Shown here piece by piece: positions 9,507-39,720 of a stretch of DNA of 64,000 nucleotides. The DNA is taken from the NCBI GenBank assembly GCA_965262455.1, contig CBDHFH010000003.1, positions 12,406 through 76,405 on the forward strand, read 5' to 3'. Source of the stretch: Gammaproteobacteria bacterium. GTDB lineage: Bacteria; Pseudomonadota; Gammaproteobacteria; UBA4575. Position 1 is the first letter of the stretch, and each line of letters begins with the position of its first letter. The notes below the pieces were generated by a model. The model was not told the origin of the DNA. It searched no databases and saw only the letters and a program-made list of their open reading frames with translations. Made by a program: the position numbers and the translations under genes.

Positions 9507-9722
9507 TTACTTTTCAGCATAGCCGAAACTATTCAGCCATGATTTATCTGTCTTTCTTCTACCGCTGGATTTTCTTCGTGCAGAGTCGGGATTTTTAGCT
9601 CGCACAGACTCTAGGGTGCACATATTATCCTTCAGGAAATAGGTGCATATAGGCTCGCTTATTTTTTTAGCTTGCTCATAATCCTCAGCAAGCAAGTTGA
9701 ATGTGACTATAAATTCTTTCAT
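9507..9722 (-). CDS. small hypothetical protein (71 aa), doubtful
   Basis: ORF only, with a basic C-terminus (RRKSSGRRKTDK). Lies between the hldE terminator and the convergent kinase gene. May be spurious. Confidence 0.25.
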   Translation of the reverse strand: MKEFIVTFNLLAEDYEQAKKISEPICTYFLKDNMCTLESVRAKNPDSARRKSSGRRKTDKSWLNSFGYAEK

Positions 9723-9828
9723 CGACTAAAAAAGTGAATTCTCTCCATCTGACGGCAATATAACCCATCTGCGCATCAGATAATCGTACGTCTTTCACAT
9801 TACGACCGACAAACGCGTCTGATCTGAG

Positions 9829-9858
9829 CTAAAAACGTGGCTCACTTGTGAGCCATGC
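9829..9858 (-). terminator. rho-independent terminator downstream of hldE
   Basis: Hairpin cgtggctcac-ttg-gtgagccatg (9-10 bp stem). On the minus strand it is followed by TTTTTAG. Confidence 0.55.
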
Positions 9859-9879
9859 GCCGCCAGCCAAGACATTAGT

Positions 9880-11280
9880 TTAATGTTTATCTACAATCGA
9901 TGAAATAATATTACTGGTTGAGTAGCCCTCAACAAACCGAATAATCTTAACCTCTCCACCACGCTGCATGACATATTCCGCGCCGACCACTTGATCCGGC
10001 GTATAATCACCACCTTTCACTAACACATCGGGATTCAACTCGCGAATTAACTTTTCTGGCGTGTTTTCATCAAAACTGACTATCCAGTCGACACTAGAAA
10101 AATAAGATAACATCTCTGCGCGATCATGTAGTGTATTTATTGGTCGTCCTTCACCTTTAAGTTGCTGAACAGATTGATCTGAGTTCAATGCCAAAACCAA
10201 CATGTCACCCATGGACGCGGCCTCACGTAGTAAATGTGCATGCCCTTTATGCAGCACATCAAAACAGCCATTTGTAAACACCACCGTATGTTGCTTTGCA
10301 TGAGCATCCAAGATGCGTTTAGTTAAAAAGTCACGACTCACCAATTTGCTATTCGGCGATTCATAGCTGAGCATACCGTGTGCAAGTTCTTCGGCTGATA
10401 AGGTTGCCGCACCAAATTTACCCACGACAATACTTGCAGCCACATTGGCAACATAAGCCGCCTGTTTAAAATCGCCATCAGAGGCAAGACTCATGGCAAA
10501 TGCAGAAATAACTGTGTCGCCTGCACCTGTGACATCATAGACTTCACGCATTTGTGCTGGGAAATTTGTCACCGCACCATCTTGCATGATCAATGTCATG
10601 CCTTTTTCGCTGCGCGTGATTAACAATGCTTCAAAATTATATTGTTGACATAAATGTTGTGCTTTTTGATAAATGTCTTGTTCCGACTCACACTCTCCAA
10701 CCACTGCACAAAACTCAGAATAATTTGGCGTCACTACTGATGCATTTTTATATTTGGCAAAATCAGTGCCTTTTGGATCAACAATAACTCTTTTATTATG
10801 TTTAAGTGCATTTTGAATAACTGCTTGCGCATCATCAAGCACACCTTTGCCGTAATCAGATAATATAACAATCGCACAATTTTCAACGACAGCAGAAAAT
10901 CTTTGCTGAATATCCGGCAAACTAACGTGGGCTTGATCATCAAAATCCAAGCGGATAAGTTGTTGGTTGCGACTAACTATCCTGATTTTCGAGGTTGTAC
11001 GAATATCAGGATGAGAACATAACTTGCATTCAATATTTTCTTTATCCAATAATTTTTGTAAGGCGACACCCTCTTGGTCTTCACCAATCGCACCGAGCAA
11101 CGTTACTTTAGATCCCAGTGCACTTATATTCTGCGCAACATTTGCCGCACCACCGGCTCTATCATGTGTCTCATTAATTCTTGCCACGGGCACGGGTGCC
11201 TCAGGCGAAATTCGATCAGCATCCGCATGCCAATATCGATCCAACATGACATCACCAACAACTAGTACATGAACATCCAT
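9880..11280 (-). CDS. hldE: bifunctional D-beta-D-heptose 7-phosphate kinase / heptose 1-phosphate adenylyltransferase
   Basis: N-terminal ribokinase-like domain (VLVVGDVMLDRYW, GAANVA). C-terminal cytidylyltransferase domain (TNGCFDVLHKGH). 466 aa. Confidence 0.9.
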   Translation of the reverse strand: MDVHVLVVGDVMLDRYWHADADRISPEAPVPVARINETHDRAGGAANVAQNISALGSKVTLLGAIGEDQEGVALQKLLDKENIECKLCSHPDIRTTSKIRIVSRNQQLIRLDFDDQAHVSLPDIQQRFSAVVENCAIVILSDYGKGVLDDAQAVIQNALKHNKRVIVDPKGTDFAKYKNASVVTPNYSEFCAVVGECESEQDIYQKAQHLCQQYNFEALLITRSEKGMTLIMQDGAVTNFPAQMREVYDVTGAGDTVISAFAMSLASDGDFKQAAYVANVAASIVVGKFGAATLSAEELAHGMLSYESPNSKLVSRDFLTKRILDAHAKQHTVVFTNGCFDVLHKGHAHLLREAASMGDMLVLALNSDQSVQQLKGEGRPINTLHDRAEMLSYFSSVDWIVSFDENTPEKLIRELNPDVLVKGGDYTPDQVVGAEYVMQRGGEVKIIRFVEGYSTSNIISSIVDKH

Positions 11281-21254: not shown

Positions 21255-21459
21255 CGTCATAATAATATTGCATGCTTAGGGACAACATATCTTTTTGGCT
21301 ACTAAAGGCAACACCATCAAGCTTTGATTTACTAAACAGCATCTCAAACAATTGGTGATGTGACGCAGCAATCAAACAAACAATCAGCTCACTATGCTGC
21401 CTCGTACACGAGCACAGTTGGGCTGATTCGCATCAAAGGCACAGCCAATCAAAATTTGC

Positions 21460-22677
21460 TTAAACCGTCTTACGATGTCCAAACGGCTTCCATGCTGGCG
21501 CAATCACATTAGGCATTTCTGAACGATTAATTAAATTAGCAGGCGCAAGAGTAAATTCACCGTAACGTTGATTAATCTTGTCCATAGCTAAATTGATCTG
21601 ATCGCGTTGAGTATCATGAGTTTCAAACAGGCACAGTTGGCGACCTGCAAAGCTAGGATCTAATGCCGTAATCTGCACTTGTGAACAACCTTGCTTGCGC
21701 CATTCATTACGCAAAAATGCATTCGCCAGTTTTTTTATATGCTGACTATCATTAGTCGGTATGTAGTTTTGTGTTTTTTGCGTTATCCAGCCTTGATTTG
21801 TTTTCACACCAATAAAATATGTTTGTGCTTCCAATTGATGTTTGCGCAGCCTGGCAGCAACTTTTTCTGCCATATGATGAAGATACATTTTTATTGTTGT
21901 TATGCTCTTGGTATTAGGCGGCATCACTTTGCCATGCCCGATAGATTTTGGCGCTGCCACACTTTGCTTTACTGGGTCAGGGTCTTGACCTTGCGCCATA
22001 TACCAAATGCGCCTGCCTAAGTTACCAAATCTATTTGCCAATTCACCAATTGGCAAGCGCTGCATATCTCCACATACATGCACGCCTCGATCATTTAGAA
22101 AATTACCAATGCCTGACGCAATACCACTCAGCTCCGTTACGGGTAATGCACTTAGATACTCACGTGCCTGTTTGGGAGGGACTACAAACAATCCATTCGG
22201 TTTTCTTTTTTTTGCGGCATGCTTAGCTGTGGTTTTATCTCCACTCACACCTACACTACACGTTACTCCACTCGCTTCATGGACTAACTGTTTGGCCATC
22301 TCTCCTGCTTCTACAGGGCTGGCATAAATTTTTTGACAACGCGTCACATCCAGGAATGCTTCATCCACGGAAAACACCTCAACATCAGGCGTTACTGTTT
22401 GCAGCACAGACATAATCTCTGTAGATACTTGCGCATAACGATAGGGCCTCGCTGGCACTTGAATTACATCAGGGCAAAGTTGTCGTGCTTGTTTAATATG
22501 CATGCCTGTTTGAATGCCGTACTTTCTTGCTTCGTAAGAACAAGTAATAAAGCATGTGCCAATTTCGCCATTAGTAATACCAATCGGTTTGCCGCGTAAT
22601 TCAGGACGATCAAATTGCTCAATACTGGCAAAGAAAGCATCCATATCAATAAATACTATGGCCCGCTCCCAATGCAT
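21460..22677 (-). CDS. umuC: Y-family translesion DNA polymerase (UmuC-like)
   Basis: IVFIDMDAFFASIEQ and SVDEAFLDVT catalytic motifs. UmuC-like blocks (ITNGEIGTCFITCSYEARKYGI, VGVSGDKTTAKHAAKK). The start overlaps the lexA stop. Confidence 0.75.
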   Translation of the reverse strand: MHWERAIVFIDMDAFFASIEQFDRPELRGKPIGITNGEIGTCFITCSYEARKYGIQTGMHIKQARQLCPDVIQVPARPYRYAQVSTEIMSVLQTVTPDVEVFSVDEAFLDVTRCQKIYASPVEAGEMAKQLVHEASGVTCSVGVSGDKTTAKHAAKKRKPNGLFVVPPKQAREYLSALPVTELSGIASGIGNFLNDRGVHVCGDMQRLPIGELANRFGNLGRRIWYMAQGQDPDPVKQSVAAPKSIGHGKVMPPNTKSITTIKMYLHHMAEKVAARLRKHQLEAQTYFIGVKTNQGWITQKTQNYIPTNDSQHIKKLANAFLRNEWRKQGCSQVQITALDPSFAGRQLCLFETHDTQRDQINLAMDKINQRYGEFTLAPANLINRSEMPNVIAPAWKPFGHRKTV

Positions 22678-22678
22678 T

Positions 22679-23281
22679 TCAATCGTACACTCTCACTTGC
22701 CCCACCAATACACCTTGAATAGTGACGCGTTTAGCTGCGTATTCTTTTGCTTGCATATTTTTATTGGCAGGAATTAACCGCACCGTATTTTTATTCGGGT
22801 ACTGAATACGTTTAAGCGTAACGTCCTGGGCATCAATTAATGCCACTACAATTTGATTACTGCGCGCGCTGCTGGCATGTTCAATAATCACCATGTCACC
22901 ATGACGAATGCCCTCATCCACCATCGACTGCCCTTTTACTTCCAGCACATAACGGTTAGGTCCATTTAATAAATGAGTAAAATTTATTGTTTGTTTATCT
23001 TCAATCGCCTCAATAGGCTTGCCTGCGGCAATACAACCCAACAAGGGCAAATCGTCAATATCTGGGTGATCGGCTAACTCAATACCACGCGTTTTAGGAT
23101 TGCGAATAATATAGCCTTTGTCTTCCAGCGCTGATACATAGCGGTGTACCACCCCTTTAGACTGAATCCCCAAGCCCGTAGCAATTTCAGTCAATAGCGG
23201 CGCTTTGCGCTGTTTAACATAGTAATTAACAATAAAATCGAAGGTGTCTTGTTCGCGTTTGGTTAGCATATAAGTTCTCAT
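22679..23281 (-). CDS. lexA: LexA repressor (wHTH + S24 peptidase domains)
   Basis: N-terminal winged-HTH (LTKREQDTFDFIVNYY...GYIIRNPKTRGIEL). Ala-Gly cleavage site (CIAAGKP). Ser (GQSMVDEGI) and Lys (TLKRI) of the catalytic dyad. The true start is likely the second Met (MLTKREQ). Confidence 0.8.
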   Translation of the reverse strand: MRTYMLTKREQDTFDFIVNYYVKQRKAPLLTEIATGLGIQSKGVVHRYVSALEDKGYIIRNPKTRGIELADHPDIDDLPLLGCIAAGKPIEAIEDKQTINFTHLLNGPNRYVLEVKGQSMVDEGIRHGDMVIIEHASSARSNQIVVALIDAQDVTLKRIQYPNKNTVRLIPANKNMQAKEYAAKRVTIQGVLVGQVRVYD

Positions 23282-23284
23282 AAA

Positions 23285-23313
23285 GTTCTCGATAATGAGA
23301 ACATAGTGAGAAC
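23285..23313 (-). promoter_or_regulatory. candidate LexA operator: GTTCTC-gataat-GAGAAC palindrome overlapping a GAAC-N7-GAAC direct repeat
   Basis: Read directly: GTTCTCgataatGAGAACatagtgaGAAC, ending 4 nt before the annotated lexA start. GTTC-N7-GTTC is the LexA box type known from alphaproteobacteria. No CTGT-N8-ACAG box was found in this intergenic region. Confidence 0.45.
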
Positions 23314-23427
23314 CTTGATGTCAATGTAAAAATTTTTTCCTGAAATACACTGCATAATCAGTAAATTTCACATTCATTAGCATGCAAAACGAGAGTATGC
23401 TTCATTAAATCAGCCATACAACACATC

Positions 23428-24480
23428 ATGCTCATAAATATGCGAACAACATTACAATGCTTAGCATTTATTTTGCTAATAGTTTTTTCATTCAATAGTC
23501 TGGCAGAAAAAATTATTATGCATACAGTGATGGACACAAAGCGCAATATGCCTATGCATCACATTCCATTGCCTGCGGACTGGAAAATAATTACACCTCA
23601 ATCAACAGAAGAGCCCAACATCACGGGCCCAAATGGAATCAAAATATATTATCGCGCGGGTGGCTCTTATGTATTTAGCCAAGACCCTTACATGCAGCAG
23701 ATTTATGCGCAAAGCGGACAAGCGATGCGTCCACCAATTAATGCACAACAAATAGTAGAGCAGGATTTAAAACCAACACTTAGTCAACATGGCTTTAGCC
23801 TAACCAATATGGAGCCATTACCAGAGGTCGCAAAACGCAGCGAAGCGTATAGTAATAAGTTATATCAAAGTGTGCCCGCACAAAAATATTTTGCCGCACT
23901 GGGCACAGAATGGAATGACGGTAAAGGCAATAGTGCATATATTATTATCGACCAGATGATTACCGAAGGACAAGGAAGTACTTTTTGGTACTACTCATTA
24001 AAAATGGTTGAAGCACCTAACGCGCATATAGCCGATGCCAAGCAAGCATTTATTTATGGCATCGTGAATACGCAGGACAATCCACAGCAAATTCAAGCAT
24101 ACAATTTAAGTGAGCAACAAAAATCTGCTCACAGCTGGCAACAACATAATTCACGTATGCAGCAAAACCAGCAAAATTTTGAACGCCAACAAGCGTTACA
24201 CAGAAATACAACAGATGCGATTAATCGTTCTATCAACGAAACCTACCGCAACCAAGATGCTGCCAGTGATCGTATTCAGGACAAGCAAGTCAATGTTATT
24301 CGCGATGAGAGCACTGTCACTAGCCCTTATGATGGTGAAAAGTATCAAGTTGAAGCTGGTGCAGACCAATATTGGATTAACAATGAAGGCGAATATATTT
24401 ATAGCGAAGATCCAAACTATAATCCAAATGCACATCCAGACAATAATCAACAATGGGAACAGGTTGAGCCCGAATACTAA
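23428..24480 (+). CDS. secreted hypothetical protein with a Q/N-rich C-terminal region
   Basis: Signal peptide (LQCLAFILLIVFSFNSLA). Low-complexity Q/N-rich C-terminal half. No recognisable domain. Probable start at 23440. Confidence 0.5.
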   Translation: MLINMRTTLQCLAFILLIVFSFNSLAEKIIMHTVMDTKRNMPMHHIPLPADWKIITPQSTEEPNITGPNGIKIYYRAGGSYVFSQDPYMQQIYAQSGQAMRPPINAQQIVEQDLKPTLSQHGFSLTNMEPLPEVAKRSEAYSNKLYQSVPAQKYFAALGTEWNDGKGNSAYIIIDQMITEGQGSTFWYYSLKMVEAPNAHIADAKQAFIYGIVNTQDNPQQIQAYNLSEQQKSAHSWQQHNSRMQQNQQNFERQQALHRNTTDAINRSINETYRNQDAASDRIQDKQVNVIRDESTVTSPYDGEKYQVEAGADQYWINNEGEYIYSEDPNYNPNAHPDNNQQWEQVEPEY

Positions 24481-24489
24481 CGTATAGAA

Positions 24490-25083
24490 CTAAAACCTAA
24501 TCTTTCCCACCACTTCTATATTATCTTTTAACACAAGCGCTTCTCCCGGGATTAGATTTAAGCCTGTAATCGCCAAAATATTTTCTGGGTGCGTCATCAG
24601 CACAAGCGCATTTGAACTCTTCCAATTAGAAATAACTTTTATTGCTTGTTTAGTGTAATAAGACTTATTCTCTGGTCGCAAATTAAAAGAATCAAATGAA
24701 GCATTTGCAAATGTCATTCCAGGAAAAGCAAGCGTCGCTGTTTCGCGTGTTCGACACCAGCGCGAATGCAGCACAATGCCGACTTTAATATTATTTTTAC
24801 GAAATCTTTGCCCAACTCGTCTTGCTTGGCTGCGCCCAGCTTCCGATAAATTAACTTGCGTACTACAATCACCCATGCGAAATCTGTAAGGATTATCGAT
24901 ACCTTTCACATGCGTATGTGACATCATTAAAATGCCACCTTCACTTAATGCGCGCCATGAAATTTGCTCTTTGAGACGATCGAAGAAAATTGAATTTAAA
25001 TGTGCTGAACAGCAAAGAAATAATGTAAGGCATAAGACAATTGTCTGCCTTAAAAAACTATCCGCCAATAAATTTTCTCGCAT
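24490..25083 (-). CDS. histidine phosphatase superfamily (SixA/PGAM-like) protein, putative
   Basis: N-terminal signal or membrane anchor. Segments LSEAGRSQARRVG and IVLHSRWCRTRETA resemble the PGAM/SixA fold. The RHG motif is not canonical. Confidence 0.4.
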   Translation of the reverse strand: MRENLLADSFLRQTIVLCLTLFLCCSAHLNSIFFDRLKEQISWRALSEGGILMMSHTHVKGIDNPYRFRMGDCSTQVNLSEAGRSQARRVGQRFRKNNIKVGIVLHSRWCRTRETATLAFPGMTFANASFDSFNLRPENKSYYTKQAIKVISNWKSSNALVLMTHPENILAITGLNLIPGEALVLKDNIEVVGKIRF

Positions 25084-25200
25084 AAATACTCCTTTGAGAA
25101 AGTACTTATTTGAATACCTCTACTTATCGACCATAATAAGAAAATTAAAAATTTAATGTGAACCTCTTGACAAAAAATTACGATCATTCGTCAAGTAATT

Positions 25201-25226
25201 TATATTAGAATAATAATTCTAATATA
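25201..25226. other. AT-only inverted repeat (11-bp arms, 4-bp spacer)
   Basis: TATATTAGAAT-aata-ATTCTAATATA. Lies 118 nt upstream of the phosphatase-like gene and downstream of the omp gene. Confidence 0.3.
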
Positions 25227-25337
25227 TTAGCTGCATTAATAGCCCAGATTTTGCATACAAAACCTGAGCTATTTAATTATTTTGATATTCGCTAAAAACT
25301 GACAACGTTATCAATTAATGACGTCTGTGTTTAATAA

Positions 25338-25979
25338 TTAAAACTGTATGACAACACCTGCCGAGATCAAATCAATATCTAAAGTGCCTATCTCACTATC
25401 ACCGATATTATTGAATCTCTCCCATTCAGCTCTGAGTTTAATGTTTTCAGTGATATTATAATGTGCACCAAATCCAAAATGGATATCGGTACCATTTTCA
25501 TCTTCATCGCCAATCAATTCGAGATTATTGTCAGTGATACCAAATTCAATATCCCAATAAATCATTCCCAACTTCATAAGCACACTAAAATTATTAGTCA
25601 AAGGCCATTCAGCCAACCCTGAGAGAAAGAACCCATCAATCTTCACCTCTAAAGTACCCGGAACAATTGCTAACGTATTAACATTTATAAATAAAGCATC
25701 CGCATCTGATTGACCAAAATCAACTGCCCCACCTTCTATAGCAAAATATTGATTAAACTTATAACCAGCATACACTTTCCAACCTAAGTCATCATCACAC
25801 GAGCCAAGCACATCTTCGCATGCATCTTTTTGGTCAGCTTGGCCAACACTTGCACCAACATAAAATCCATTATTGTCATTTTGCGCAAAGCCATTAGGGG
25901 CAATCATAACTAGCGCAAAAATCATGACTAATGCATTTAGCAAATATATTCGCTTATTACGTATTTGAAATACTTTCAC
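25338..25979 (-). CDS. outer-membrane beta-barrel (OmpA-like/porin family) protein
   Basis: Signal peptide, alternating amphipathic beta-strands and a C-terminal aromatic residue (VVIQF). 213 aa. Confidence 0.65.
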   Translation of the reverse strand: MKVFQIRNKRIYLLNALVMIFALVMIAPNGFAQNDNNGFYVGASVGQADQKDACEDVLGSCDDDLGWKVYAGYKFNQYFAIEGGAVDFGQSDADALFINVNTLAIVPGTLEVKIDGFFLSGLAEWPLTNNFSVLMKLGMIYWDIEFGITDNNLELIGDEDENGTDIHFGFGAHYNITENIKLRAEWERFNNIGDSEIGTLDIDLISAGVVIQF

Positions 25980-26192
25980 TTTATTACTCCAAAATTTATT
26001 AATATTTATTTTTTATATAAATAATTATTGATTAATACACATTTAATGCTTGGAATTCAGATCAACTGCAATGTTGATCGCGCATTCGGTAAATGTTTTT
26101 GTTAATTGATTTTGTGTTTGATTGAGACTCGTTAACAGCTGAGGCATCCGGTATAGTACGCGCACATATTTATGACAAACTACTAACAAACA

Positions 26193-28237: not shown

Positions 28238-28870
28238 ATGTCACTGACACCAGAAGAATTAGAAGCCATCATGGAACGTAAAAATAAGATGCGACGCGAG
28301 GCATATGACCGTCGCAACGCACAAGAAAACAAGGATGAGGTTAGCGCTAAAGCCGTTAAACGCTTTATGGAGCTGCCTGACTATCAGAATGCTCACTGTG
28401 TTATGTGGTACATCGACTGCCGATCAGAAACGCGCACCAAGCCTGAGTTACTCGCAGAAGTCGCCAAGGGCGAAAAGAAAATTATCGTGCCTTACTGCAC
28501 TGAAGATGAAAACGGTGAAAACAAACTTGGTCTATGGTGGATGGAAAGCCTAGAAGAGATGGTGGTTGGTAAATGGGATATCCTTGAGCCGCCTAAAGAA
28601 ATGTGGGGCAATCCAGAAAAAGAAGTTGAAGCTGAAGACCTCGATCTTGTTATGGTTCCTGGCGTTGGCTTTGACCGTAATGGGGGACGCATGGGTAATG
28701 GCCAAGGTTACTATGACCGCTTGCTGGAAAAAGTTCGCCCAGAATCACCTTTGATTGCGCTCTGCTACGAGTCGCAGTTATTCGACAATGTGTTAGTGGC
28801 ACCACATGATGTTTACATGGATAAAGTTGTTACTGAAGATGCTGTTTACGAAGGTAAAGGAAGAGACTAA
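28238..28870 (+). CDS. 5-formyltetrahydrofolate cyclo-ligase (MTHFS) family protein
   Basis: 210 aa. MTHFS-family signature (MVPGVGFDRNGGRMGNGQGYYDRLL). Stop overlaps the fhcD start (TAATG). Confidence 0.7.
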   Translation: MSLTPEELEAIMERKNKMRREAYDRRNAQENKDEVSAKAVKRFMELPDYQNAHCVMWYIDCRSETRTKPELLAEVAKGEKKIIVPYCTEDENGENKLGLWWMESLEEMVVGKWDILEPPKEMWGNPEKEVEAEDLDLVMVPGVGFDRNGGRMGNGQGYYDRLLEKVRPESPLIALCYESQLFDNVLVAPHDVYMDKVVTEDAVYEGKGRD

Positions 28871-29793
28871 TGACTGCCATTATTGATGACACTTATGCAG
28901 AAGCGTTTAGAAGCTTCTACACAGAGTTTCTAATTACTGCAAAAGACTTGAAGTGGGTGGAGCACGCCGTGAATGCGGCCACAGGCAATGCATCAAGTTC
29001 CATTCTATGTGATTGTGAAGCCGGGCTAGATCGATATGTGGGTCCTGGTGCTGATGAGAGTTTTGAAACACCTGATGGTCGTCCTGGCGCATTGGTGCAG
29101 TTGCACGTGCCACGTTTTCGCAAAGATCGCGTAGAAGCATTAGAGCGCTCTGCGTTAGTGAGGATCAGTCAGAATGTGATGACATGCCCAACTGCATCAT
29201 GTTTCAACATGATTGACTCTGAGAACTACTATCATATGGGCCGCAAAGTCGCTTACTTCGGTAATGGTTACCAAAAACGTATTGAACGTTATGGGCGCAA
29301 AATGTGGTGGATCCCGATTCTTGGTGGCGAGTTTGTGCTTGATCGCCGATTGGGGCAAGCCGATGGTCTAATGGGGGGCAATCTTTGGTTCTTTGGTAAA
29401 GATGTTGACTCTGCACTGGAAGCCGCCGAAAAAGGCTGCGAAGCTATTTCTCCTATCGATGGCGTGATCACTACATTCCCGGGCGGTATTGCTGGCAGCG
29501 GTTCTAAAGCTGGTAGTAATTACGATTTCACTATTGCAAGTACCTATGAAAAGTTTTGTCCACTACTGCAAGATGATCCCACCGTTGAACATGGTCTCCC
29601 TGAAGGCGTTAACTCAGTGATGGAAATTATCATGAATGGACGCGATATGGCTTGCATTGTTGAAGCAACTCAAGCGGCGATCCAAGCATCTAAAGAAACA
29701 GATGGACTCATTATGATATCAGCAGGTAACTATAATGGACGTCTAGGTAAGAGCTTTATTTACCTGGATCCGAGCAAACAGCCCAATGACTAA
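28870..29793 (+). CDS. fhcD: formylmethanofuran:tetrahydromethanopterin N-formyltransferase (Ftr/FhcD)
   Basis: 307 aa. Ftr-like throughout (DDTYAEAFRSFYTEFLITA, GNASSSILCDCEAGLDRYV). No fhcA/B/C adjacent. Confidence 0.85.
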   Translation: MTAIIDDTYAEAFRSFYTEFLITAKDLKWVEHAVNAATGNASSSILCDCEAGLDRYVGPGADESFETPDGRPGALVQLHVPRFRKDRVEALERSALVRISQNVMTCPTASCFNMIDSENYYHMGRKVAYFGNGYQKRIERYGRKMWWIPILGGEFVLDRRLGQADGLMGGNLWFFGKDVDSALEAAEKGCEAISPIDGVITTFPGGIAGSGSKAGSNYDFTIASTYEKFCPLLQDDPTVEHGLPEGVNSVMEIIMNGRDMACIVEATQAAIQASKETDGLIMISAGNYNGRLGKSFIYLDPSKQPND

Positions 29794-29904
29794 TAATTGC
29801 ATTGGCACACCAGCATTTGCAGCAATAAGTAATATGCACTATTGGTATTTATATTTAGTAGATATTGCTAATAAATCATAGATTGTTCGGTTGTAAGTTG
29901 CACC

Positions 29905-29945
29905 TAAGGCCAGTTGAATTAAACTCAATTGGCCTTTTTTAATTG
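29905..29945 (+). terminator. rho-independent terminator after fhcD
   Basis: Hairpin GGCCAGTTG-aattaaact-CAATTGGCC, followed by TTTTTTAATTG. Confidence 0.5.
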
Positions 29946-29976
29946 TTTCACAGACCTAAACAACGAGGGTTTAACA

Positions 29977-30834
29977 GTGGTTATCGACGGCAAAAAAGTT
30001 GCTTTACAAATTCGCAACAGAATCAAAGCACAACTAGAAAACTTCCCACATGCAAACATTACCCTAGCCACTGTTATTGTCGGCAAGAACCCTGCAAGTC
30101 AGTTATACGTAGGCATGAAACACCGTGAAGCAAATGCAGCGGGCATTCACTCGAAACATGTCGAACTAGATGAAAACATTACCCAACTTGAATTAGAGCA
30201 ACAAATTACACTGTTAGCGAATGACGATAACGTCCATGGCATACTTGTACAATTGCCGTTGCCAAAGCATTTGAACAAAGAAAAAATGCTGGAAAAAATT
30301 CCTGCGGAGAAAGACGTTGATGGTTTGACTGACACCAACATGGGCCGTCTACTGCAAGGACATAAACAACTTGTGCCCTGTACACCCTTGGGTGTGATGC
30401 GTCTAATTGAAGCATACAATGTCACTACCAACGGCAAAAACGCGGTAGTTATTGGGCGCTCATCTTTGGTTGGCTTACCGCAAGTGTTATTGCTTGCAGA
30501 ACGCGGCGCAGATGCCACTGTCACACTGGCTCATTCACGCACTCAAGATCTAGCCGAGGTATGCAAACAGGCCGATATATTAGTAAGTGCAGTGGGCTCT
30601 CCCGCACTTGTTACAGAGCAGTTTATTAAACCTGGTGCAATGGTATTTGATGTTGGCGTAACTCGCCTAGATAACCAAAAAATCCAGGGTGATGTTGATT
30701 TTGATGCAGCGATAAAAATTGCTGGCGGCGTCACGCCTATGCCGGGCGGAACAGGCCCGATGACGGTGGCTTGTTTACTCGAAAACACTATTCTTGCAGC
30801 CACCCTGCAAGACGCATTACCCAGATCACATTAA
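29977..30834 (+). CDS. folD: bifunctional methylene-H4F dehydrogenase / methenyl-H4F cyclohydrolase
   Basis: FolD motifs (GKNPASQLYVGMKHRE, VQLPLPKHL, GRSSLVGLP, GGVTPMPGGTGPMT). Start set at the GTG at 29977, preceded by GAGGG. The ORF track begins at 29929. Confidence 0.85.
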   Translation: MVIDGKKVALQIRNRIKAQLENFPHANITLATVIVGKNPASQLYVGMKHREANAAGIHSKHVELDENITQLELEQQITLLANDDNVHGILVQLPLPKHLNKEKMLEKIPAEKDVDGLTDTNMGRLLQGHKQLVPCTPLGVMRLIEAYNVTTNGKNAVVIGRSSLVGLPQVLLLAERGADATVTLAHSRTQDLAEVCKQADILVSAVGSPALVTEQFIKPGAMVFDVGVTRLDNQKIQGDVDFDAAIKIAGGVTPMPGGTGPMTVACLLENTILAATLQDALPRSH

Positions 30835-31067
30835 GCAATAAAACATCGGTAAAAGCAGTCAAACTGATCTTGTGGCTAAGGCTGTGCTTGTGGCATTATG
30901 GCGAACTTTTCGAACATGGCGGAAATATCCATCATGTTTGCATGACTCTGATTCAACCTATACATATCAGACTCGACTGTTTTCATAGAAGCTGTTTTTC
31001 ACGTATCACAATTACAGTTTCAATTATTTTATTTCATATAAATTAACTCACATTAAAAGGTACTGTT

Positions 31068-32351
31068 ATGCCTGGCGAAAAACTTAGTTACCCTGGAAGA
31101 AATTATCTATTTGCACCTGGTCCGACGCATATCCCTAATGAAGTAATGAATGCCATGGTCGTTCCCCAAGAAGACCATCGCGCACCGGACTTTCCACAAC
31201 TAGTGAAGCCCTTACTAGAAGACTTGAAGAAAATTTTCAGAACTAAAAAAGGCCAGTGTTTTATTTTTCCTGCAACCGGCACAGCAGGTTGGGAAATTGC
31301 ATTAGCAAATACATTATCACCTGGCGATAAAATACTGACATCACGTTTTGGTCAGTTCAGTCACTTGTGGTATGACTTAGCCATACGCATCGGCCTAGAC
31401 GTTGAACTTATTGAAATCCCATGGGGCGAAGGTGTGCCAGTCATGGAATTTAAAAAGCGTCTTCGTGCTGATAAAGATCACAAAATTAAAGCCGTTGTTG
31501 CATGTCATAATGAAACTGCGACTGGTGTGACAAGCGATATCGCCGCACTTGGCAAAATGATAAAGAAGGATCTCAAACATCCTGCGCTGTTAATGGTTGA
31601 CGGTGTTAGCTCAATTGCGAGTATTGATTTTCGCATGGACGAGTGGGGTGTAGACGTTGCCGTAAGCGGATCACAAAAAGGCTTCATGCTTCCTGCGGGT
31701 ATGGCGCTGTTAGCATTTAGTCCCAAGGCACTTGCTAAGCATAAATCTTCAAAGTGCGCGAAGTGCTTTTTAGATATCAAAGATCACATCAATACTAATA
31801 AAGACGGCTTCTTCCCGTACACGCCTTCAGTACCCATGTTACGTGGTTTACGTGCCTCACTCGACTTGCTACTCGGAGAAGGCCTAGACAATGTCTATGC
31901 TCGACACTTCCGTCTTGCCGAAGGAGTGCGTAAGGCCGTTAAAGCATGGGGCTTAGAGACGTGTGCCACTTCTCCAAAATGGCGTTCTGACACAGTTACC
32001 GCAATTTTGGCCCCACCCAGTGTTAATGCGGCAGAAGTCATCCACATTGCATATCATCGTTACAATATCTCCTTGGGTGCCGGCCTGACAAAAGTCGCAG
32101 GTAAAGTATTTCGCATCGGCCATCTTGGTGATAATAACGATGTGCGCATGATGGCCGCACTTGGTGGCGTTGAAATGGCCATGCGTGATGCCGGTATCCG
32201 TATCAAACCCGGCAGCGGTACAGGTGCAGCATGCGAATACTATCGTAAGACTGCTAAAGCAATTCCTGCGTTTAAAGCACCGGCCGCGACTAAACCTAAA
32301 GCAAAGCGTAAAACTAAAAGAAGAACAGTTAAACGCACAGCTGCAAAATAA
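31068..32351 (+). CDS. sga: serine-glyoxylate aminotransferase with a C-terminal lysine/alanine-rich basic tail
   Basis: Class V aminotransferase, SGAT-like throughout (LFAPGPTHIPNEVMNAM, SGSQKGFMLPAG). 427 aa, including a roughly 25-aa tail APAATKPKAKRKTKRRTVKRTAAK. Confidence 0.85.
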   Translation: MPGEKLSYPGRNYLFAPGPTHIPNEVMNAMVVPQEDHRAPDFPQLVKPLLEDLKKIFRTKKGQCFIFPATGTAGWEIALANTLSPGDKILTSRFGQFSHLWYDLAIRIGLDVELIEIPWGEGVPVMEFKKRLRADKDHKIKAVVACHNETATGVTSDIAALGKMIKKDLKHPALLMVDGVSSIASIDFRMDEWGVDVAVSGSQKGFMLPAGMALLAFSPKALAKHKSSKCAKCFLDIKDHINTNKDGFFPYTPSVPMLRGLRASLDLLLGEGLDNVYARHFRLAEGVRKAVKAWGLETCATSPKWRSDTVTAILAPPSVNAAEVIHIAYHRYNISLGAGLTKVAGKVFRIGHLGDNNDVRMMAALGGVEMAMRDAGIRIKPGSGTGAACEYYRKTAKAIPAFKAPAATKPKAKRKTKRRTVKRTAAK

Positions 32352-32367
32352 GAGAGGATATTAACCT

Positions 32368-33315
32368 ATGAGTTTTACACAACCTACACCTGCCAGACAA
32401 AGAGTGCAGCGATGCGAGCTCGCAGTACCTGCATCCAATGTCAAAATGATCGAGAAGTCCGCCGACTGTGATGCAGACTTTGTATTTCTAGATTTAGAAG
32501 ATGCCGTCGCACCGGGTGACAAAGTTCAAGCACGTAAGAACGCCATTGAAGCGGTCAATGATATTGACTGGGCTGGTAAAGGCAAAACGATTGCAGTTCG
32601 CATTAATGGCCTTGATACACATTATATGTATCGTGATGTCATAGATCTTGTCGAACAAGCAGGCAGTAAGCTCGATACGATTTTTATTCCTAAAGCGGGT
32701 GTTCCGGCGGATGTTTACATGGTTGATGCCTTACTTACTCAAATCGAGGAAGCCAAAGGATTCGAAAATAAAATCGCCATAGAAGCCATCATTGAAACCA
32801 CCTTAGGCATGTCCAACGTAGAGTCGATTGCGCAATCAAGCCCGCGCCTGGAAGCTCTGCACTTTGGTGTAGCGGACTACTCAGCTAGTTGTCGTGCGCG
32901 TACCGTTAATATTGGTGGGTTAAATCCAGATTACCCGGGTGACCAGTGGCATTCCGCAATCTCACGCATGGTTGTTGCTTGTCGCGCATATGGTTTACGT
33001 CCTATTGACGGTCCATTCGGCGATATCAAAGACCCGGAAGGTTACATGCTGGCATGTCGTCGTGGTGCTGCACTTGGTATCGAGGGTAAATGGGCTATCC
33101 ACCCATCACAAATTGAAATGGCGAATGAGGTCTTCTCTCCACCTGAAGAAGAGGTCGCAAAAGCACATCGAATTCTAGAAGAACTAGAAAAAGCCGCTCA
33201 AGCGGGCCAAGGCGCTGCCACCTTGGATGGCAAAATGATCGACGCGGCGTCAGCAAAAATGGCAGAGAACGTTGTTCGTGCCGCTGAAGCCATTGCTGCT
33301 AAGAGTAAATCTTAA
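32368..33315 (+). CDS. mcl: malyl-CoA lyase
   Basis: Near-collinear with MclA of serine-cycle methylotrophs (FLDLEDAVAP, INGLDTHYMYRDV, GKWAIHPSQI). 315 aa. Confidence 0.9.
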   Translation: MSFTQPTPARQRVQRCELAVPASNVKMIEKSADCDADFVFLDLEDAVAPGDKVQARKNAIEAVNDIDWAGKGKTIAVRINGLDTHYMYRDVIDLVEQAGSKLDTIFIPKAGVPADVYMVDALLTQIEEAKGFENKIAIEAIIETTLGMSNVESIAQSSPRLEALHFGVADYSASCRARTVNIGGLNPDYPGDQWHSAISRMVVACRAYGLRPIDGPFGDIKDPEGYMLACRRGAALGIEGKWAIHPSQIEMANEVFSPPEEEVAKAHRILEELEKAAQAGQGAATLDGKMIDAASAKMAENVVRAAEAIAAKSKS

Positions 33316-33327
33316 TCACATATCTCC

Positions 33328-33353
33328 TCATGTACCTTGCACTATAGTGCAAG
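33328..33353. repeat. perfect 26-bp palindrome immediately downstream of mcl
   Basis: GTACCTTGCACTATAGTGCAAGGTAC equals its own reverse complement. No strong T-tract follows. Confidence 0.9.
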
Positions 33354-33511
33354 GTACCCCTAAAATAGTCGTATAAAAATAATAACCATATATTTTTTAC
33401 GTCTTTCCAAATCCAACGTAAGTAAATTGATGGAGTAATAATTACTCGCACGCACACTCTGTATGCGCGCGTATATTTCTTTTTTCACATTTAACATGGG
33501 AGGGAGATGCT

Positions 33512-34687
33512 GTGGACATCCACGAGTATCAAGCAAAAGAGCTATTATCCAAATTCGGCGTCAGTATCGCGCCAGGTGGATTAGCATACAGCCCGGAACA
33601 GGCTGTTTATCGCGCTAAAGAAATTGGCGGAAATAAATGGGTGGTTAAAGCACAAATACACTCTGGCGCACGCGGAAAAGCAGGCGGTGTAAAACTGTGT
33701 ACGTCTGAAGAAGAAGTACTCGCTGTTGCCACTGAGTTACTTGGAAAAACCCTAGTCACGCACCAAACCGGGCCACAAGGAAAAGTTGTCTACCGCCTGT
33801 ATATAGAAGAAGGCACAGACATCGAAAAAGAACTCTACGTTGCGCTTGTGCTTGACCGAGTTAAACAACGCGTGGCAATTATTGCATCAACCGAAGGCGG
33901 CATGGACATTGAAGAAGTGGCCGCCACTAATCCTGATGCCATTATTCGAACTGAAATCGAACCACAAGTCGGTTTGACCGACTTCCAGGCACGTGAAATC
34001 GCGTTCCAACTTGGTCTCGATCCTTCTCTTATCTCTCAAGCAGTAAAAACCTTAAAAGGTGCATACCGCTCTTTCACAGAACTTGATGCAACTATGGTTG
34101 AAATCAATCCATTAGTGATTACCAAGGACGGCCACATCCGTGCACTTGATGCCAAAATGGGATTTGATAGTAATGCCCTATTCCGTCGCCCACAAATTGC
34201 TGAATTACGTGATAAATCTCAAGAAGATCCTCGCGAAACTGCAGCTTCAGACTATGGCTTAAGTTATGTTGGTTTAGACGGCGATATCGGTTGCATGATT
34301 AACGGTGCCGGCTTAGCCATGGCATCCCTTGATATGATCAAGCACAAAGGCGGCGAACCTGCCAACTTCCTAGATATTGGTGGCGGTGCCTCACCCGAAC
34401 GTGTCGCAAAAGCATTTGAACTGGTACTTGCAGATGAGGGCGTAAAAGCATTTCTAGTCAATATTTTTGCCGGCATTAACCGTTGCGATTGGATTGCTGA
34501 AGGGATTGTTCAAGCCTTCAAACAGTTAGACGTGAAAGTACCTCTCGTGGTTAGACTCTCTGGAACCAATGTTGAGCAAGGACAAAAAATTCTTGCCGAT
34601 AGCGGTTTACCAATTATCAATGCGCACACACTTGCTGAAGCTGCTGAAAAAGCGGTAGAAGCACGCAACCAAGCCGTTGGCGCCTAG
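33512..34687 (+). CDS. mtkA: malate thiokinase (malate-CoA ligase) large/beta subunit
   Basis: ATP-grasp succinyl-CoA-synthetase-beta-like ([28 protein letters not shown]). 391 aa. Lies in the serine-cycle block. Confidence 0.9.
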
Positions 34688-34711
34688 TTCAAGGAAAAGG
34701 GAGATTAACTT

Positions 34712-35599
34712 ATGACTGTATTACTTAATGAAAATACCAAAGTAATCGTACAAGGTTTTACCGGAAAGATTGGTACTTTCCACGCTGAAGAAATGATGGA
34801 ATACGGCACCAACCTAGTGGGCGGCGTAACACCGGGTAAAGGCGGAAAAGAGCATCTTGGCAAGCCAGTATTCAATACTGTTAAAGAAGCTGTCAACGAA
34901 GTCGGCGCTGAAGCCAGCATCATTTTCGTCCCGGCAGCATTTGCTGCTGACTCCATCATGGAAGCGGCAGATGCGGGCATTAAATATTGTGTCGCTATTT
35001 CTGATGGCATCCCAGCGCAAGACATGATGAAAGTGAAGCGCTACATGTATCGTTACAAAAAAGAAGACCGCATGGTCCTCACTGGCCCTAACTGTGCAGG
35101 CACCATCAGCCCAGGCAAAGCCATGCTAGGCATTATGCCAGGCCATATATACATGGAAGGCAATGTCGGTGTGGTCGGCCGCTCTGGCACATTGGGATAC
35201 GAAGCAGCATCACAAATGAAAGCGCTAGGCATTGGTATCACTACCAGTGTTGGCATTGGCGGTGACCCCATCAATGGCAGCTCTCACAAAGACATACTCG
35301 AGCACTTCGAAAAAGATCCAGATACTAAAGCGGTGATGATGATAGGTGAAATCGGTGGTCCACAAGAAGCCGAAGCAGCCGAGTTCTTCAAAAATCATAT
35401 GACAAAGCCATTGGTGGCTTATATTGCAGGCCTCACAGCACCTAAAGGACGACGCATGGGTCATGCTGGAGCAATTGTTTCGGGTGTCGGTGAAAGCGCT
35501 GCAGAGAAAGTCGCACTTCTCCAAGAAGCGGGCGTGACTGTTGCACCTAATCCATCGGATCTAGGCATTACGATGGAAAAAGTACTCAAAGAAATGTAA
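34712..35599 (+). CDS. mtkB: malate thiokinase small/alpha subunit
   Basis: SucD-like CoA-binding subunit (VIVQGFTGKIGTFH, catalytic His region GHAGAIVSG). 295 aa. Confidence 0.9.
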   Translation: MTVLLNENTKVIVQGFTGKIGTFHAEEMMEYGTNLVGGVTPGKGGKEHLGKPVFNTVKEAVNEVGAEASIIFVPAAFAADSIMEAADAGIKYCVAISDGIPAQDMMKVKRYMYRYKKEDRMVLTGPNCAGTISPGKAMLGIMPGHIYMEGNVGVVGRSGTLGYEAASQMKALGIGITTSVGIGGDPINGSSHKDILEHFEKDPDTKAVMMIGEIGGPQEAEAAEFFKNHMTKPLVAYIAGLTAPKGRRMGHAGAIVSGVGESAAEKVALLQEAGVTVAPNPSDLGITMEKVLKEM

Positions 35600-35669
35600 C
35601 TACGTATTGCGTGCAGTCATGCTGCCCAATCGCAAATCGGAATAAATCAATTTAGGGAGAGTCCTGAAA

Positions 35670-36638
35670 ATGAGTAAACCTAAAGTTATCGTTACCCGCA
35701 AATGGCCAGAACCCGTTGAAGCTCAGCTTAAAGAGTTATACGACGTTCAACTTAATGACAATGACGTTGCAATGACGCCAGACGAAATGAAAGCAGCACT
35801 TAATAACTGCGATGCATTTTGTCCTACGGTAACAGATCCAGTTAACGCAGATGTGTTAGGAACAGCGGATATTTCAGCGAAGATAATTGCCAGCTATGGT
35901 GTTGGCTTTAACCATATCGACTTGGACGCGGCAAAAGCACGCAATCTTACTGTCACCAACACACCTGAAGTGTTAACAGACTGCACTGCTGACATTGCCA
36001 TGGGTTTACTACTTTCTGCCGCACGCAGAATTGGCGAAGGTGAACGTCACTTGCGTGGTGGCGAATGGACTGGTTGGCGTCCAACTCACATGATGGCAAC
36101 TAAAGTCACTGGAAAAACCTTGGGCTGTATTGGCTTTGGACGTATCGCACAAGCCACCGCTGCGCGTGCACATTTTGGTTTCGGTATGAAAATCATTTTC
36201 AGTGATCCTTACCCACCTTCACAAGAAGTGATGAATCGCTTTGGCGCTACTCAAATGAGTGTCGAGGAAGTGTTACAGCAAGCTGACTTTGTTTCACTGC
36301 ATTGCCCTGGCGGTAAAGATACATATCACTTACTTAACGAAGAGCGCATTGGCATGATGCAAAAACATGCTGTGCTTGTTAACTCAGCACGAGGAGATGT
36401 CATCGACAACCAAGCGCTAATCAAAGCACTAAAAGATGGCACTATTGCAGGCGCAGGTTTAGATGTGTTTGAAGGTGAACCTAAGTTGGATCCTGGCTTT
36501 TTAGATTGCGAAAATGCCGTGTTACTTCCGCACCTTGGAAGTGCATCAATCGAAACACGTATTGCCATGGGTGAGCGCGTGTTAGAAAACTTAAAAGCAT
36601 TTTTTGCGGGCGATGTCCCTCGTGATAAGTTGGTATAA
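35670..36638 (+). CDS. hprA: hydroxypyruvate reductase / D-glycerate dehydrogenase (D-2-hydroxyacid dehydrogenase family)
   Basis: NAD-binding motif GCIGFGRIAQA. Catalytic R/E/H of D-2-hydroxyacid dehydrogenases. Position between mtkB and ppc. Confidence 0.7.
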   Translation: MSKPKVIVTRKWPEPVEAQLKELYDVQLNDNDVAMTPDEMKAALNNCDAFCPTVTDPVNADVLGTADISAKIIASYGVGFNHIDLDAAKARNLTVTNTPEVLTDCTADIAMGLLLSAARRIGEGERHLRGGEWTGWRPTHMMATKVTGKTLGCIGFGRIAQATAARAHFGFGMKIIFSDPYPPSQEVMNRFGATQMSVEEVLQQADFVSLHCPGGKDTYHLLNEERIGMMQKHAVLVNSARGDVIDNQALIKALKDGTIAGAGLDVFEGEPKLDPGFLDCENAVLLPHLGSASIETRIAMGERVLENLKAFFAGDVPRDKLV

Positions 36639-36710
36639 TCCAATAGCATATTATTGCTATAAACATACTTCGCATCTTCTGATGTGAAGAGTTTAGTTTA
36701 ATAAGTTAAC

Positions 36711-36740
36711 AAAAGGAGGCTGCCAGCCTCCTTTTGTACG
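36711..36740 (+). terminator. rho-independent (probably bidirectional) terminator between hprA and ppc
   Basis: AAAAGGAGGCTG-c-CAGCCTCCTTTT: near-perfect 12-bp stem flanked by A-run and T-run. Confidence 0.7.
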
Positions 36741-36761
36741 TATACAAAGCAAGTTAAAACC

Positions 36762-39557: not shown

Positions 39558-39720
39558 TCTTGTTATTGCATTCGAATATACTGTATTAAAAAATAATTTA
39601 AGCTGCGGATTTACTCAATATAAATTCGTCACTTGAATTATTTGTTTGCCTTGTACTTTTATCGCTAGTAACACAGAAATAATTAAACTGAATTAATATA
39701 AAATTTACCCATCAAATCTA

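Follow-up and report, generated by a model that had tools for sequence, protein, structure and literature searches.

The lexA-dinB locus

The window analyzed here, that is, the whole stretch of 64,000 nucleotides taken from contig CBDHFH010000003.1 of a gammaproteobacterial assembly (GCA_965262455.1), carries a gene for the repressor LexA, followed by a gene for a Y-family DNA polymerase and preceded by a symmetric array of four hexamers (H1 to H4), the candidate operator (Table 1). An earlier note on this DNA had described an operon of lexA and a polymerase gene; both genes were present and adjacent, but the strand needed correcting, the operon lying on the minus strand. The overlap of stop and start codons given in the same note was one base off, the junction reading GAT TGA A ATG with a gap of 1 nt. 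Judged from its sequence, the locus probably represents a DNA-damage-inducible, self-repressed lexA-dinB operon with a direct-repeat operator, a reading to which a probability of roughly 0.78 was given.

The version of LexA returned by the open reading frame finder was 200 aa long and started at 23281. Most of 1,320 LexA homologues were 196 aa long and began with MLT, and the upstream ATG sits within hexamer H4 and, in relatives, is either missing or in another frame; translation therefore very probably starts at the second ATG (23269), which would yield MLTKREQ. The GC content of lexA (0.43 against 0.415 in the surroundings) indicated a native composition. No RNA family was retrieved in an Rfam scan of the window.

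Table 1. Features of the lexA-dinB locus, in window coordinates
Feature	Position	Strand	Remarks
lexA, 196 aa	22679-23269	-	winged helix-turn-helix and S24 self-cleaving domain; recognition helix SKGVVHRYVSALEDKG
dinB (DNA polymerase IV, Y family), 405 aa	21460-22677	-	1 nt after the lexA stop
-35-like TTGACA	23319..23324	-	5 nt 5' of hexamer H1; read from sequence
Direct repeat 1, GTTCTC-actat-GTTCTC (H1, H2)	23297..23313	-	one GTTC-N7-GTTC box, promoter spacer/-10 region
Central 6-nt spacer	23291..23296	-	ATTATC towards lexA, GATAAT on the plus strand
Direct repeat 2, inverted, GAGAAC-tttat-GAGAAC (H3, H4)	23274..23290	-	ends 4 nt before ATG

LexA and DNA polymerase IV

The LexA of the window passed the NCBIfam equivalog model TIGR00498 (137.2 bits, cut-off 110.95), with a winged helix-turn-helix domain at residues 6-63 (PF01726, 35.6 bits, cut-off 23.7) and an S24 peptidase domain at residues 79-193 (PF00717, 87.5 bits). 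Its cleavage site, Ala82-Gly83, lies in AAGKP (from residue 81), and its catalytic residues are Ser115 (in GQSM, from 113) and Lys153 (in TLKR, from 151); in alignment, A82-G83, S115 and K153 correspond to A84-G85, S119 and K156 of Escherichia coli LexA. The full-length LexA with winged helix, Ala-Gly site and Ser/Lys dyad that had been recognized earlier was thereby confirmed by models and residues alike, and by the equivalog model the protein is a bona fide LexA.

Matches of its C-terminal domain to UmuD models were weak (58.7 bits, cut-off 110), with UmuD' structures retrieved at E values of about 1e-8. In phmmer searches, the LexAs of Thermotoga and E. coli scored 89 and 84 bits against the window protein within one sequence set, and alphaproteobacteria-like LexAs about 119-126 bits within a different sequence set. 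The nearest outgroup LexAs, searched for among 1.84 billion representative proteins, were 44-58% identical and about 200 aa long, with the common recognition helix S-[KR]-G-x-x-H-R-Y. LexAs from Methylophaga were about 45% identical, too distant for the window to come from Methylophaga itself, and the relatives in cultured Methylophaga are labelled plain LexA by NCBI.

The polymerase had been read as an active-looking UmuC. Its catalytic motifs are indeed intact (DMDAFF at residue 11, with DMD at 11-13, and SVDEAF at 103, with DE at 105-106), but the UmuC identity did not stand, as Pol IV (DNA polymerase IV) models and structures outscored it. The protein passed the Pol IV equivalog NF002677 (PRK02406) narrowly, with 257.6 bits for a cut-off of 256, and gave 215-261 bits with other Pol IV models, each under its own cut-off, while the UmuC model NF002955 reached 106.5 bits for a cut-off of 431. 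The best matches among solved structures were all Pol IV, Dbh or Dpo4 (7yll, 197.6 bits; 4ir1 of E. coli, 148.8 bits). Both the IMS domain (PF00817, 148 bits) and the little finger (PF11799, 49.5 bits) were detected, and the Methylophaga homologue is a DNA polymerase IV in the NCBI annotation. By these models and structural matches the polymerase is a DinB/Pol IV. It is longer than E. coli DinB and carries, at residues 347-351, the sequence QLCLF, which we take from the established QL[SD]LF consensus to be a putative clamp-binding motif; another 54 residues come after it.

Pol IV works without UmuD. The missing umuD pointed out earlier was real insofar as no further S24 or Y-family gene was found within the window; because the polymerase is a DinB independent of UmuD, this absence is no anomaly and needs no explanation. 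The suggestion that the C-terminal domain of LexA might stand in as the accessory subunit lost its ground likewise, there being no gap to fill. In many relatives, the first DinB motif reads VDMN[AS]FFASIEQ, with Asn at the place of the second Asp of the DMD present in the window and in E. coli (metagenome lexA-dinB loci L116, L138, L155 and L201; loci retrieved in the searches are cited by such numbers).

Operator architecture and conservation

Read towards lexA, the upstream region runs TTGACA-tcaag-GTTCTC-actat-GTTCTC-attatc-GAGAAC-tttat-GAGAAC-ttat-ATG. Its four hexamers form a 40-bp operator (23274-23313; GTTCTC-N5-GTTCTC-N6-GAGAAC-N5-GAGAAC), in which two GTTC-N7-GTTC direct repeats stand head to head, at 23299-23313 on the minus and at 23274-23288 on the plus strand. 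The string GTTCTC-gataat-GAGAAC-atagtga-GAAC noticed earlier is present on the plus strand, but the fourth hexamer had been missed. The claim that a GTTC-N7-GTTC operator takes the place of the CTGT-N8-ACAG box was upheld: two such direct repeats were found, and canonical boxes numbered zero both in the window (0.81 expected by chance) and in the related gammaproteobacterial loci (about 320 kb of clade DNA). GTTCTC or GAGAAC occurred 20 times in the 64 kb (18.9 expected), four of these copies being inside the single symmetric 40-bp site. GTTC-N7-GTTC was matched three times (1.15 expected); the third match, in a serine-cycle gene cluster and probably within a coding region, is probably due to chance.

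The pattern GTTCTC-N5-GTTCTC-N6-GAGAAC was scanned for in one genome per species (185,579 species) and retrieved at 71 loci. The whole array was present at 33 of them, all gammaproteobacterial (metagenome-assembled genomes, MAGs, named Gammaproteobacteria, Thiotrichales or Pseudomonadota), 30 with the exact four hexamers and 3 with GAGAAT as the last one. The next gene was lexA at 31 of these 33 sites, its product being 45-84% identical to the LexA of the window, and at the other two the fetched locus ended short of the gene; dinB came after lexA wherever the fetched locus reached far enough. Columns belonging to the hexamers were essentially invariant (about 2 bits) over the 33 unique operators, while spacers and flanks varied, a pattern which, read across the alignment, is a phylogenetic footprint. 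The spacing between H2 and H3 was 6 nt in all 33 operators.

Synteny of the lexA-dinB locus extended over at least seven species-level genomes, and one bin (PL25a_bin.154) harbored two paralogous cassettes (L008, L067). On chromosome OZ244982.1, a second full operator was found before a pair of dinB and a gene for a conserved protein of about 147 aa (p147), with no lexA (L047); from this lexA-less dinB copy, the operator would act in trans. Recurrence of the motif across the genome had been proposed earlier as a check, and the part of it covered here showed that sites with at least three hexamers do recur in this clade, at lexA and dinB only. Apart from the main operators, 321 kb of clade DNA contained no isolated pair of hexamers, whether direct or palindromic, and one second site (L099), probably due to chance, was seen in related contigs totalling 820 kb.

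The locus was deleted in one close relative (L209, positions 9542-10000 of a 2.16-Mb contig), in which ppa and ilvD are 460 bp apart, compared with 21255-26192 in the window. The missing segment, of about 4.9 kb, comprises dinB, lexA, the genes for a 350-aa secreted protein and a 197-aa protein, and most of the gene for a 213-aa outer-membrane protein, whose last 50 codons remain. Because a close relative lost this segment, the locus appears dispensable. Close upstream of ppa, the same contig encodes an IS1595 transposase and a methylase/HNH protein.

Promoter assignment in the window was made by comparison with sister loci. In the sister group (group 2, n=21), TTGAAT is followed by H1-N5-H2, exactly 17 bp, then by a -10 box, then by H3-N5-H4 and the ATG. 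The central spacer is thus itself the -10 box (TATGAT, TATAAT or TATTAT), 17 bp after TTGAAT, and by its sequence a consensus sigma-70 promoter is threaded through the operator. H4 of group 2 reads GGAGAAC, doubling as ribosome-binding site. Window-type loci (group 1, n=12) displayed TTGAC(A/T) at the offset seen in the window in 12 of 12 cases, 5 bp further upstream than the -35 of group 2. In all of them, T is the last base of the first spacer, and AT are the first two bases of the central spacer, directly after H2; this pattern suggests a TG-extended TCTCAT -10 at 18 bp, a tentative assignment. A scan for consensus sigma-70 promoters returned nothing at the window operator, where TCTCAT or CATTAT, either of them overlapping H2, probably serves as the -10, with uncertain placement. 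Direct repeat 2 likely covers the transcription start and the 5' leader.

Other genes and repeats at the scanned loci

In third position, many lexA-dinB cassettes encode the protein of about 147 aa, which is also encoded after the lone dinB of L047 and is absent from the window (L001 11809-12252; L020, L034, L047, L049, L053, L067, L071; L202 7840-8280). No Pfam or NCBIfam family was matched by it. Nuclease genes stand divergent from lexA at some loci (L001 8424-9839, the same as L036 1394-2809; L202 5467-5838): one chromosome encodes a 471-aa fusion of a DEDD exonuclease and a Cho/UvrC-like GIY-YIG excinuclease, and a plasmid of Methylophaga thalassica a 123-aa GIY-YIG protein.

Outside the Gammaproteobacteria, Eubacteriales/Clostridia gut MAGs contained GTTCTCCTTTCGTTCTCCGAAAGGAGAAC followed by agctaaatttgc in several copies per genome (L009, L016, L027, L041, L055, L065, L072); this element, apparently unrelated to lexA, could represent a family of repeats or the end of a mobile element. 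A locus from Candidatus Peribacteria (L037) contained many GTTCTC copies in a short stretch, and one from Parcubacteria (L063) was also among the loci retrieved. The three-hexamer pattern was found at six loci of viral contigs, none with a fourth hexamer or lexA, and these were treated as chance matches.

Distant relatives and the binding unit

More distant LexAs displayed reduced or rearranged forms of the operator. A LexA 48% identical to that of the window, encoded in a housekeeping neighbourhood with no dinB (L080), had a single repeat between TTGAAT and TACAGT, while one 45% identical and accompanied by dinB (L079) had a second, inverted repeat 11 nt further downstream. In Methylophaga thiooxydans, four TTCTC cores, each in direct orientation, precede lexA-dinB, and in Methylophaga sp. 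OBS3 a stand-alone lexA in a housekeeping context, without polymerase gene, lies behind ATTCTA-N5-TTTCTA. The plasmid lexA of M. thalassica, encoding the same recognition helix, had a single direct repeat and no palindrome. A relaxed core, TTCT[CA]-N6-TTCT[CA], was found solely at the lexA promoter in seven loci of relatives of 7-21 kb.

Metagenomes were scanned with TTGNNN-GTTCTC-N5-GTTCTC-TANNNT, a pattern that demanded one promoter layout, and at least 120 loci were obtained. About 78 of the 120 matches listed were located before lexA, many of them with dinB next, the LexAs having a helix of the window type or of the SRGSLHKH type and the loci GC contents from 34% to 69%. The others listed included 5-6 lone dinB genes (L134 and L136 among them), 13 genes for MrfA-type helicases (DEAD, Helicase_C, HRQ1 winged helix and MrfA zinc domain), several with the four-hexamer layout, and 2 imuA-imuB cassettes with no adjacent lexA (ImuA model 215.9 bits, cut-off 150). 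By their predicted products, the non-lexA matches are a coherent damage-tolerance set. Where a second repeat was present at the metagenome loci, it started 0-12 nt past the -10. Because relatives carry one pair, pairs at variable distance or tandem cores, the direct repeat (two GTTCTC with an 11-bp period) is likely the putative binding unit, read by one dimer.

The MrfA/YprA-type helicases were 800-843 aa long (L128, L129, L130, L147, L164, L171, L175, L196, L199 and others), several of their loci carried a second inverted repeat, and at L130 the helicase gene was divergent from a lexA with the SRGSLHKH helix. Two different IS91-family transposase genes (Y2_Tnp and zinc-binding domains; L093, L139) were located directly 3' of such a promoter, which hints at damage-inducible transposition in the hosts. 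Three loci (L087, L098, L170) encoded proteins of 77-103 aa with the motif [FL]M[RG]DRV.NRV..F and a hydrophobic C-terminal tail behind promoters of the TTGTTT-GTTCTC-N5-GTTCTC-TATACT type. No known family was matched by these small proteins, which could be SOS-induced membrane proteins.

Proposed switch and alternative explanations

As the conserved putative operator overlaps the promoter, LexA is predicted to regulate itself, by binding and by RecA-aided cleavage. In undamaged cells, LexA would sit on the 40-bp operator, over its own promoter and 5' leader, and keep both LexA and DinB low. The binding unit would be two GTTCTC hexamers 11 bp apart, in the GTTC-N7-GTTC architecture of alphaproteobacterial LexA, and the two head-to-head repeats would most likely accommodate two LexA dimers, one on the -35/-10 region and one on the transcription start and leader. 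Upon DNA damage, RecA filaments would promote self-cleavage of LexA at Ala82-Gly83 and the operator would clear; lexA and dinB would then be transcribed together, with translational coupling across TGA-A-ATG, and fresh LexA would reset the switch. We infer LexA as the binder of the hexamers, the stoichiometry of two dimers, the dependence on RecA and the exact -10 of the window.

Several observations weigh against this reading. The -10 region of the window is non-canonical, the distance from TTGACA being 18 bp to TCTCAT, in which the key A of position 2 is missing, and 21 bp to CATTAT, the other candidate. Response regulators of the OmpR/PhoB type, too, typically use direct repeats with an 11-bp period. 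The fixed 6 nt between H2 and H3 leaves room for binding to the inner palindrome in the clade of the window. Finally, recA, uvrA, ssb and recN were all lacking among the 120 metagenome matches listed, in a scan that demanded one promoter layout; this lack is weak evidence against a wider regulon. That the hexamers are bound by another regulator, for example a response regulator of the OmpR/PhoB type, is nevertheless scarcely credible: the repeat geometry by itself would be compatible, but the motif accompanies the LexA family in every context examined (chromosome, plasmid, with or without dinB) and marks SOS-type genes, and no conserved neighbouring regulator gene accompanies it. Binding of one dimer, as in E. 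coli, to the 18-bp palindrome GTTCTC-N6-GAGAAC (H2-H3), with the outer hexamers being auxiliary or cooperative, is unlikely. It would agree with the constant H2-H3 spacing (33 of 33 clade operators), with half-site centres 12 bp apart, the same, by arithmetic on the sequence, as in CTGT-N8-ACAG, and with the palindromic nature of most LexA boxes (PMC8565304), but relatives with the same helix have just one direct repeat, without a palindrome (L080, the M. thalassica plasmid), others have their two repeats at variable distances, and all four cores of M. thiooxydans point in one orientation. It is also very improbable that the polymerase is a UmuC-type Pol V subunit without UmuD, for which the C-terminal domain of LexA, a UmuD homologue, would act as accessory. 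The weak match of that domain to UmuD models, the length of the polymerase (405 aa, exceeding E. coli DinB, with about 54 residues past the clamp-like motif) and a report, cited in PMC9578287, that UmuD modulates DinB in E. coli are in its favor; set against them are the score with the UmuC model (106.5 for a cut-off of 431, with 245-261 for Pol IV models), the exclusively Pol IV, Dbh or Dpo4 nature of the top structures, the Pol IV annotation in Methylophaga, and the lone dinB genes with no adjacent lexA behind the same operator (L047, L134, L136).

The reach of the self-repressed lexA-dinB switch was harder to place, and we lean towards a small regulon centred on damage-tolerance genes. The LexA of the window could be a second, specialised repressor like LexA2 of Pseudomonas putida, serving its own cassette only while a canonical LexA reading CTGT-N8-ACAG elsewhere runs the main SOS response. 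This is a possibility to be entertained tentatively, and just as tentatively it could be the sole LexA of the lineage, its motif replaced, in charge of a full SOS regulon including recA and excision repair, with lexA-dinB as the strongest site. A dedicated role would fit with the restriction of sites of at least three hexamers to lexA-dinB and the second dinB in four complete clade chromosomes and with the paralogous cassettes of bin PL25a_bin.154. It would also fit with the mobility suggested by plasmids, such as the 320-kb plasmid of M. thalassica, in which the GIY-YIG nuclease gene and lexA-dinB-p146 lie beside a Tn3 transposase gene, a Methylobacter plasmid with umuDC and lexA beside Tn3, and a plasmid LexA of which 100% identical copies are recorded under the name Marinobacter and in 22 contigs. 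The close relative whose IlvD is 91% identical, and which between ppa and ilvD has lost dinB and lexA along with three adjacent genes, points the same way and speaks against a master repressor, and lexA2-imuA-imuB-dnaE2 is a published precedent (PMC3901139). On the other side stand the absence of canonical SOS boxes from the window and from about 320 kb of clade DNA, the chromosomal position, native GC content (0.43 vs 0.415) and synteny of the gene in at least seven species-level genomes, the related LexAs alone in housekeeping contexts without polymerase (L080, Methylophaga sp. OBS3), the plain LexA naming in cultured Methylophaga, and the single lexA of most bacteria (PMC3789691). A master repressor would be in line with the match to the LexA equivalog model, with the lack of canonical boxes from window and clade loci, with the annotation of this family as the LexA of cultured Methylophaga, and with the same motif and promoter layout at imuA-imuB, MrfA-type helicase and dinB genes of relatives. 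LexA replacement of such a kind is reportedly known from Betaproteobacteria, as Sanchez-Alberola and colleagues are said to have described in 2015. That a divergent LexA may regain control of the SOS network once the primary copy is lost has been proposed as well (PMC8565304). A master repressor is harder to reconcile with the lack of recA, uvrA, ssb and recN among the 120 metagenome matches listed, and with the near absence of isolated two-hexamer sites (none in 321 kb of clade DNA, one, probably chance, in 820 kb). A more far-reaching scenario, which we would put somewhat below even odds, is that a LexA of the E. coli type is missing altogether from the entire uncultured marine gammaproteobacterial lineage, as well as from Methylophaga and its relatives, and that their sole LexA, of non-alphaproteobacterial descent, reads GTTCTC direct repeats. 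The SOS response would then have shrunk to portable dinB, imuAB-dnaE2 and MrfA-type helicase modules that may occur in duplicate or on plasmids or be lost as a whole.

Host context and significance

The window also encodes a serine-cycle/C1-transfer cluster (28238-40578), whose gene names were read from the Pfam domains of syntenic L209 genes and from open reading frame translations. Its C1 genes encode a 5-formyl-tetrahydrofolate cyclo-ligase-like protein, FTR, FolD and an MtdA-like protein; the rest encode a serine-glyoxylate aminotransferase-like protein, a malyl-CoA lyase-like protein, malate thiokinase-like subunits, a hydroxypyruvate reductase-like protein and phosphoenolpyruvate carboxylase. 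Because of this cluster the host, with a GC content of 41.5%, looks like a methylotroph.

If the reading of the operon is true, a broad gammaproteobacterial LexA lineage, covering metagenome loci of 34-69% GC and cultured Methylophaga, would use a direct-repeat motif, apparently a further and independent instance of evolutionary change in LexA motifs, and the E. coli matrix would be unsuitable for predicting the SOS regulons of these organisms. The operator would also offer a natural system in which to study how a direct repeat is recognized by a symmetric LexA dimer, one LexA family presenting a head-to-head pair, a lone repeat, four tandem cores and two promoter threadings. From an ecological point of view, expression of an error-prone polymerase would be tied to repressor turnover in abundant marine bacteria with serine-cycle genes. 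The lexA-dinB switch could be tested in cultured Methylophaga.

Comparison with known systems

GTTC-N7-GTTC is the reported LexA site of Alphaproteobacteria (PMC8565304, PMC3323433, PMC9578287), among them Caulobacter, Rhodobacter and Rhizobium, while the CTGT-N8-ACAG box is ascribed to most Beta- and Gammaproteobacteria (PMC3323433). The alphaproteobacterial type of architecture noticed earlier was borne out by positive controls, the lexA promoters of Sphingomonas and Cereibacter having three GTTC/GAAC repeats in tandem with the same 11-bp period, and in the genome scan alphaproteobacterial imuA (Gluconobacter) and dinB genes were also located behind GTTCTC-N5-GTTCTC. The tetranucleotide, the 11-bp period, the direct orientation and the occurrence at lexA and translesion-polymerase promoters are all shared. 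A recognition helix of the form S-K-x-x-x-H-R is common to both (SKGVVHRY in the window, SKSG[IV]HRL in Alphaproteobacteria), compared with S-P-N-A-A-E-E in E. coli. On the other hand, the host is gammaproteobacterial, the 196-aa LexA is devoid of the long linker of the 226-228-aa alphaproteobacterial proteins, and its two repeats are placed head to head in a 40-bp palindrome, unlike the three tandem repeats of the alphaproteobacterial lexA promoters examined.

Identity of the DNA-binding domain was 21-22/65 with Sphingomonas and Cereibacter and 24/64 with E. coli. The kinship to alphaproteobacterial LexA that the earlier note had put up for checking did not emerge by identity, these proteins being no nearer than that of E. 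coli and the nearest ones being gammaproteobacterial LexAs of about 200 aa. Alphaproteobacterial descent or lateral acquisition of lexA was therefore rejected, the long linker being absent as well, and the LexA of the window is predicted to be a separate LexA lineage reading the same half-site. The open-access literature searched contained no description of a GTTC direct-repeat LexA box for Gammaproteobacteria or for Methylophaga. What appears new is the non-canonical direct-repeat box on a gammaproteobacterial self-repressed LexA operon, such operons with non-canonical boxes being already known.

In Gluconobacter, the site GTTCTC-N5-GTTCTC-N6-(G)GAGAAC, with the third hexamer as ribosome-binding site, was followed by a gene of 261-263 aa (MTTDAVARLREQV...) in one or two copies and then by a weak Y-family match, read as imuA-imuB (L011, L015, L025, L033, L038, L039, L043, L051, L059, L064, L066, L068, L069, L078).

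LexA2 of P. putida (lexA2-imuA-imuB-dnaE2) resembles the LexA of the window in that lexA comes first in a self-regulated operon for error-prone synthesis with a box other than that of E. coli, and its coexistence with a primary LexA is proven (PMC3901139). It differs by its motif and cargo, the operon of the window carrying a single intact-looking DinB rather than ImuA, ImuB and DnaE2; imuA-imuB-dnaE2 was not found downstream of the window lexA, which is followed by dinB alone. In Geobacter sulfurreducens, each of lexA1 and lexA2 is reportedly co-transcribed with a dinB, as Jara and colleagues are said to have found in 2003. That host is deltaproteobacterial and its box differs, being a long palindrome, GGTT-N10-AACC (PMC8565304). 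Acidobacterium capsulatum, going by the title of Mazon et al. 2006 as cited in PMC3789691, is another non-alphaproteobacterium with an alphaproteobacterial box; that case is explained by a lateral alphaproteobacterial lexA, whereas the LexA of the window is not alphaproteobacteria-like overall. Self-cleaving S24 repressors in compact units with error-prone polymerases are also represented by FddR-dinB of Francisella and UmuDAb of Acinetobacter (PMC13148647), and the UmuDAb operator has two repressor binding sites (PMC11332147), as predicted for that of the window. UmuDAb differs in being a UmuD derivative that needs DdrR, while the protein of the window is, by its model match, a bona fide LexA that would be co-transcribed with dinB.

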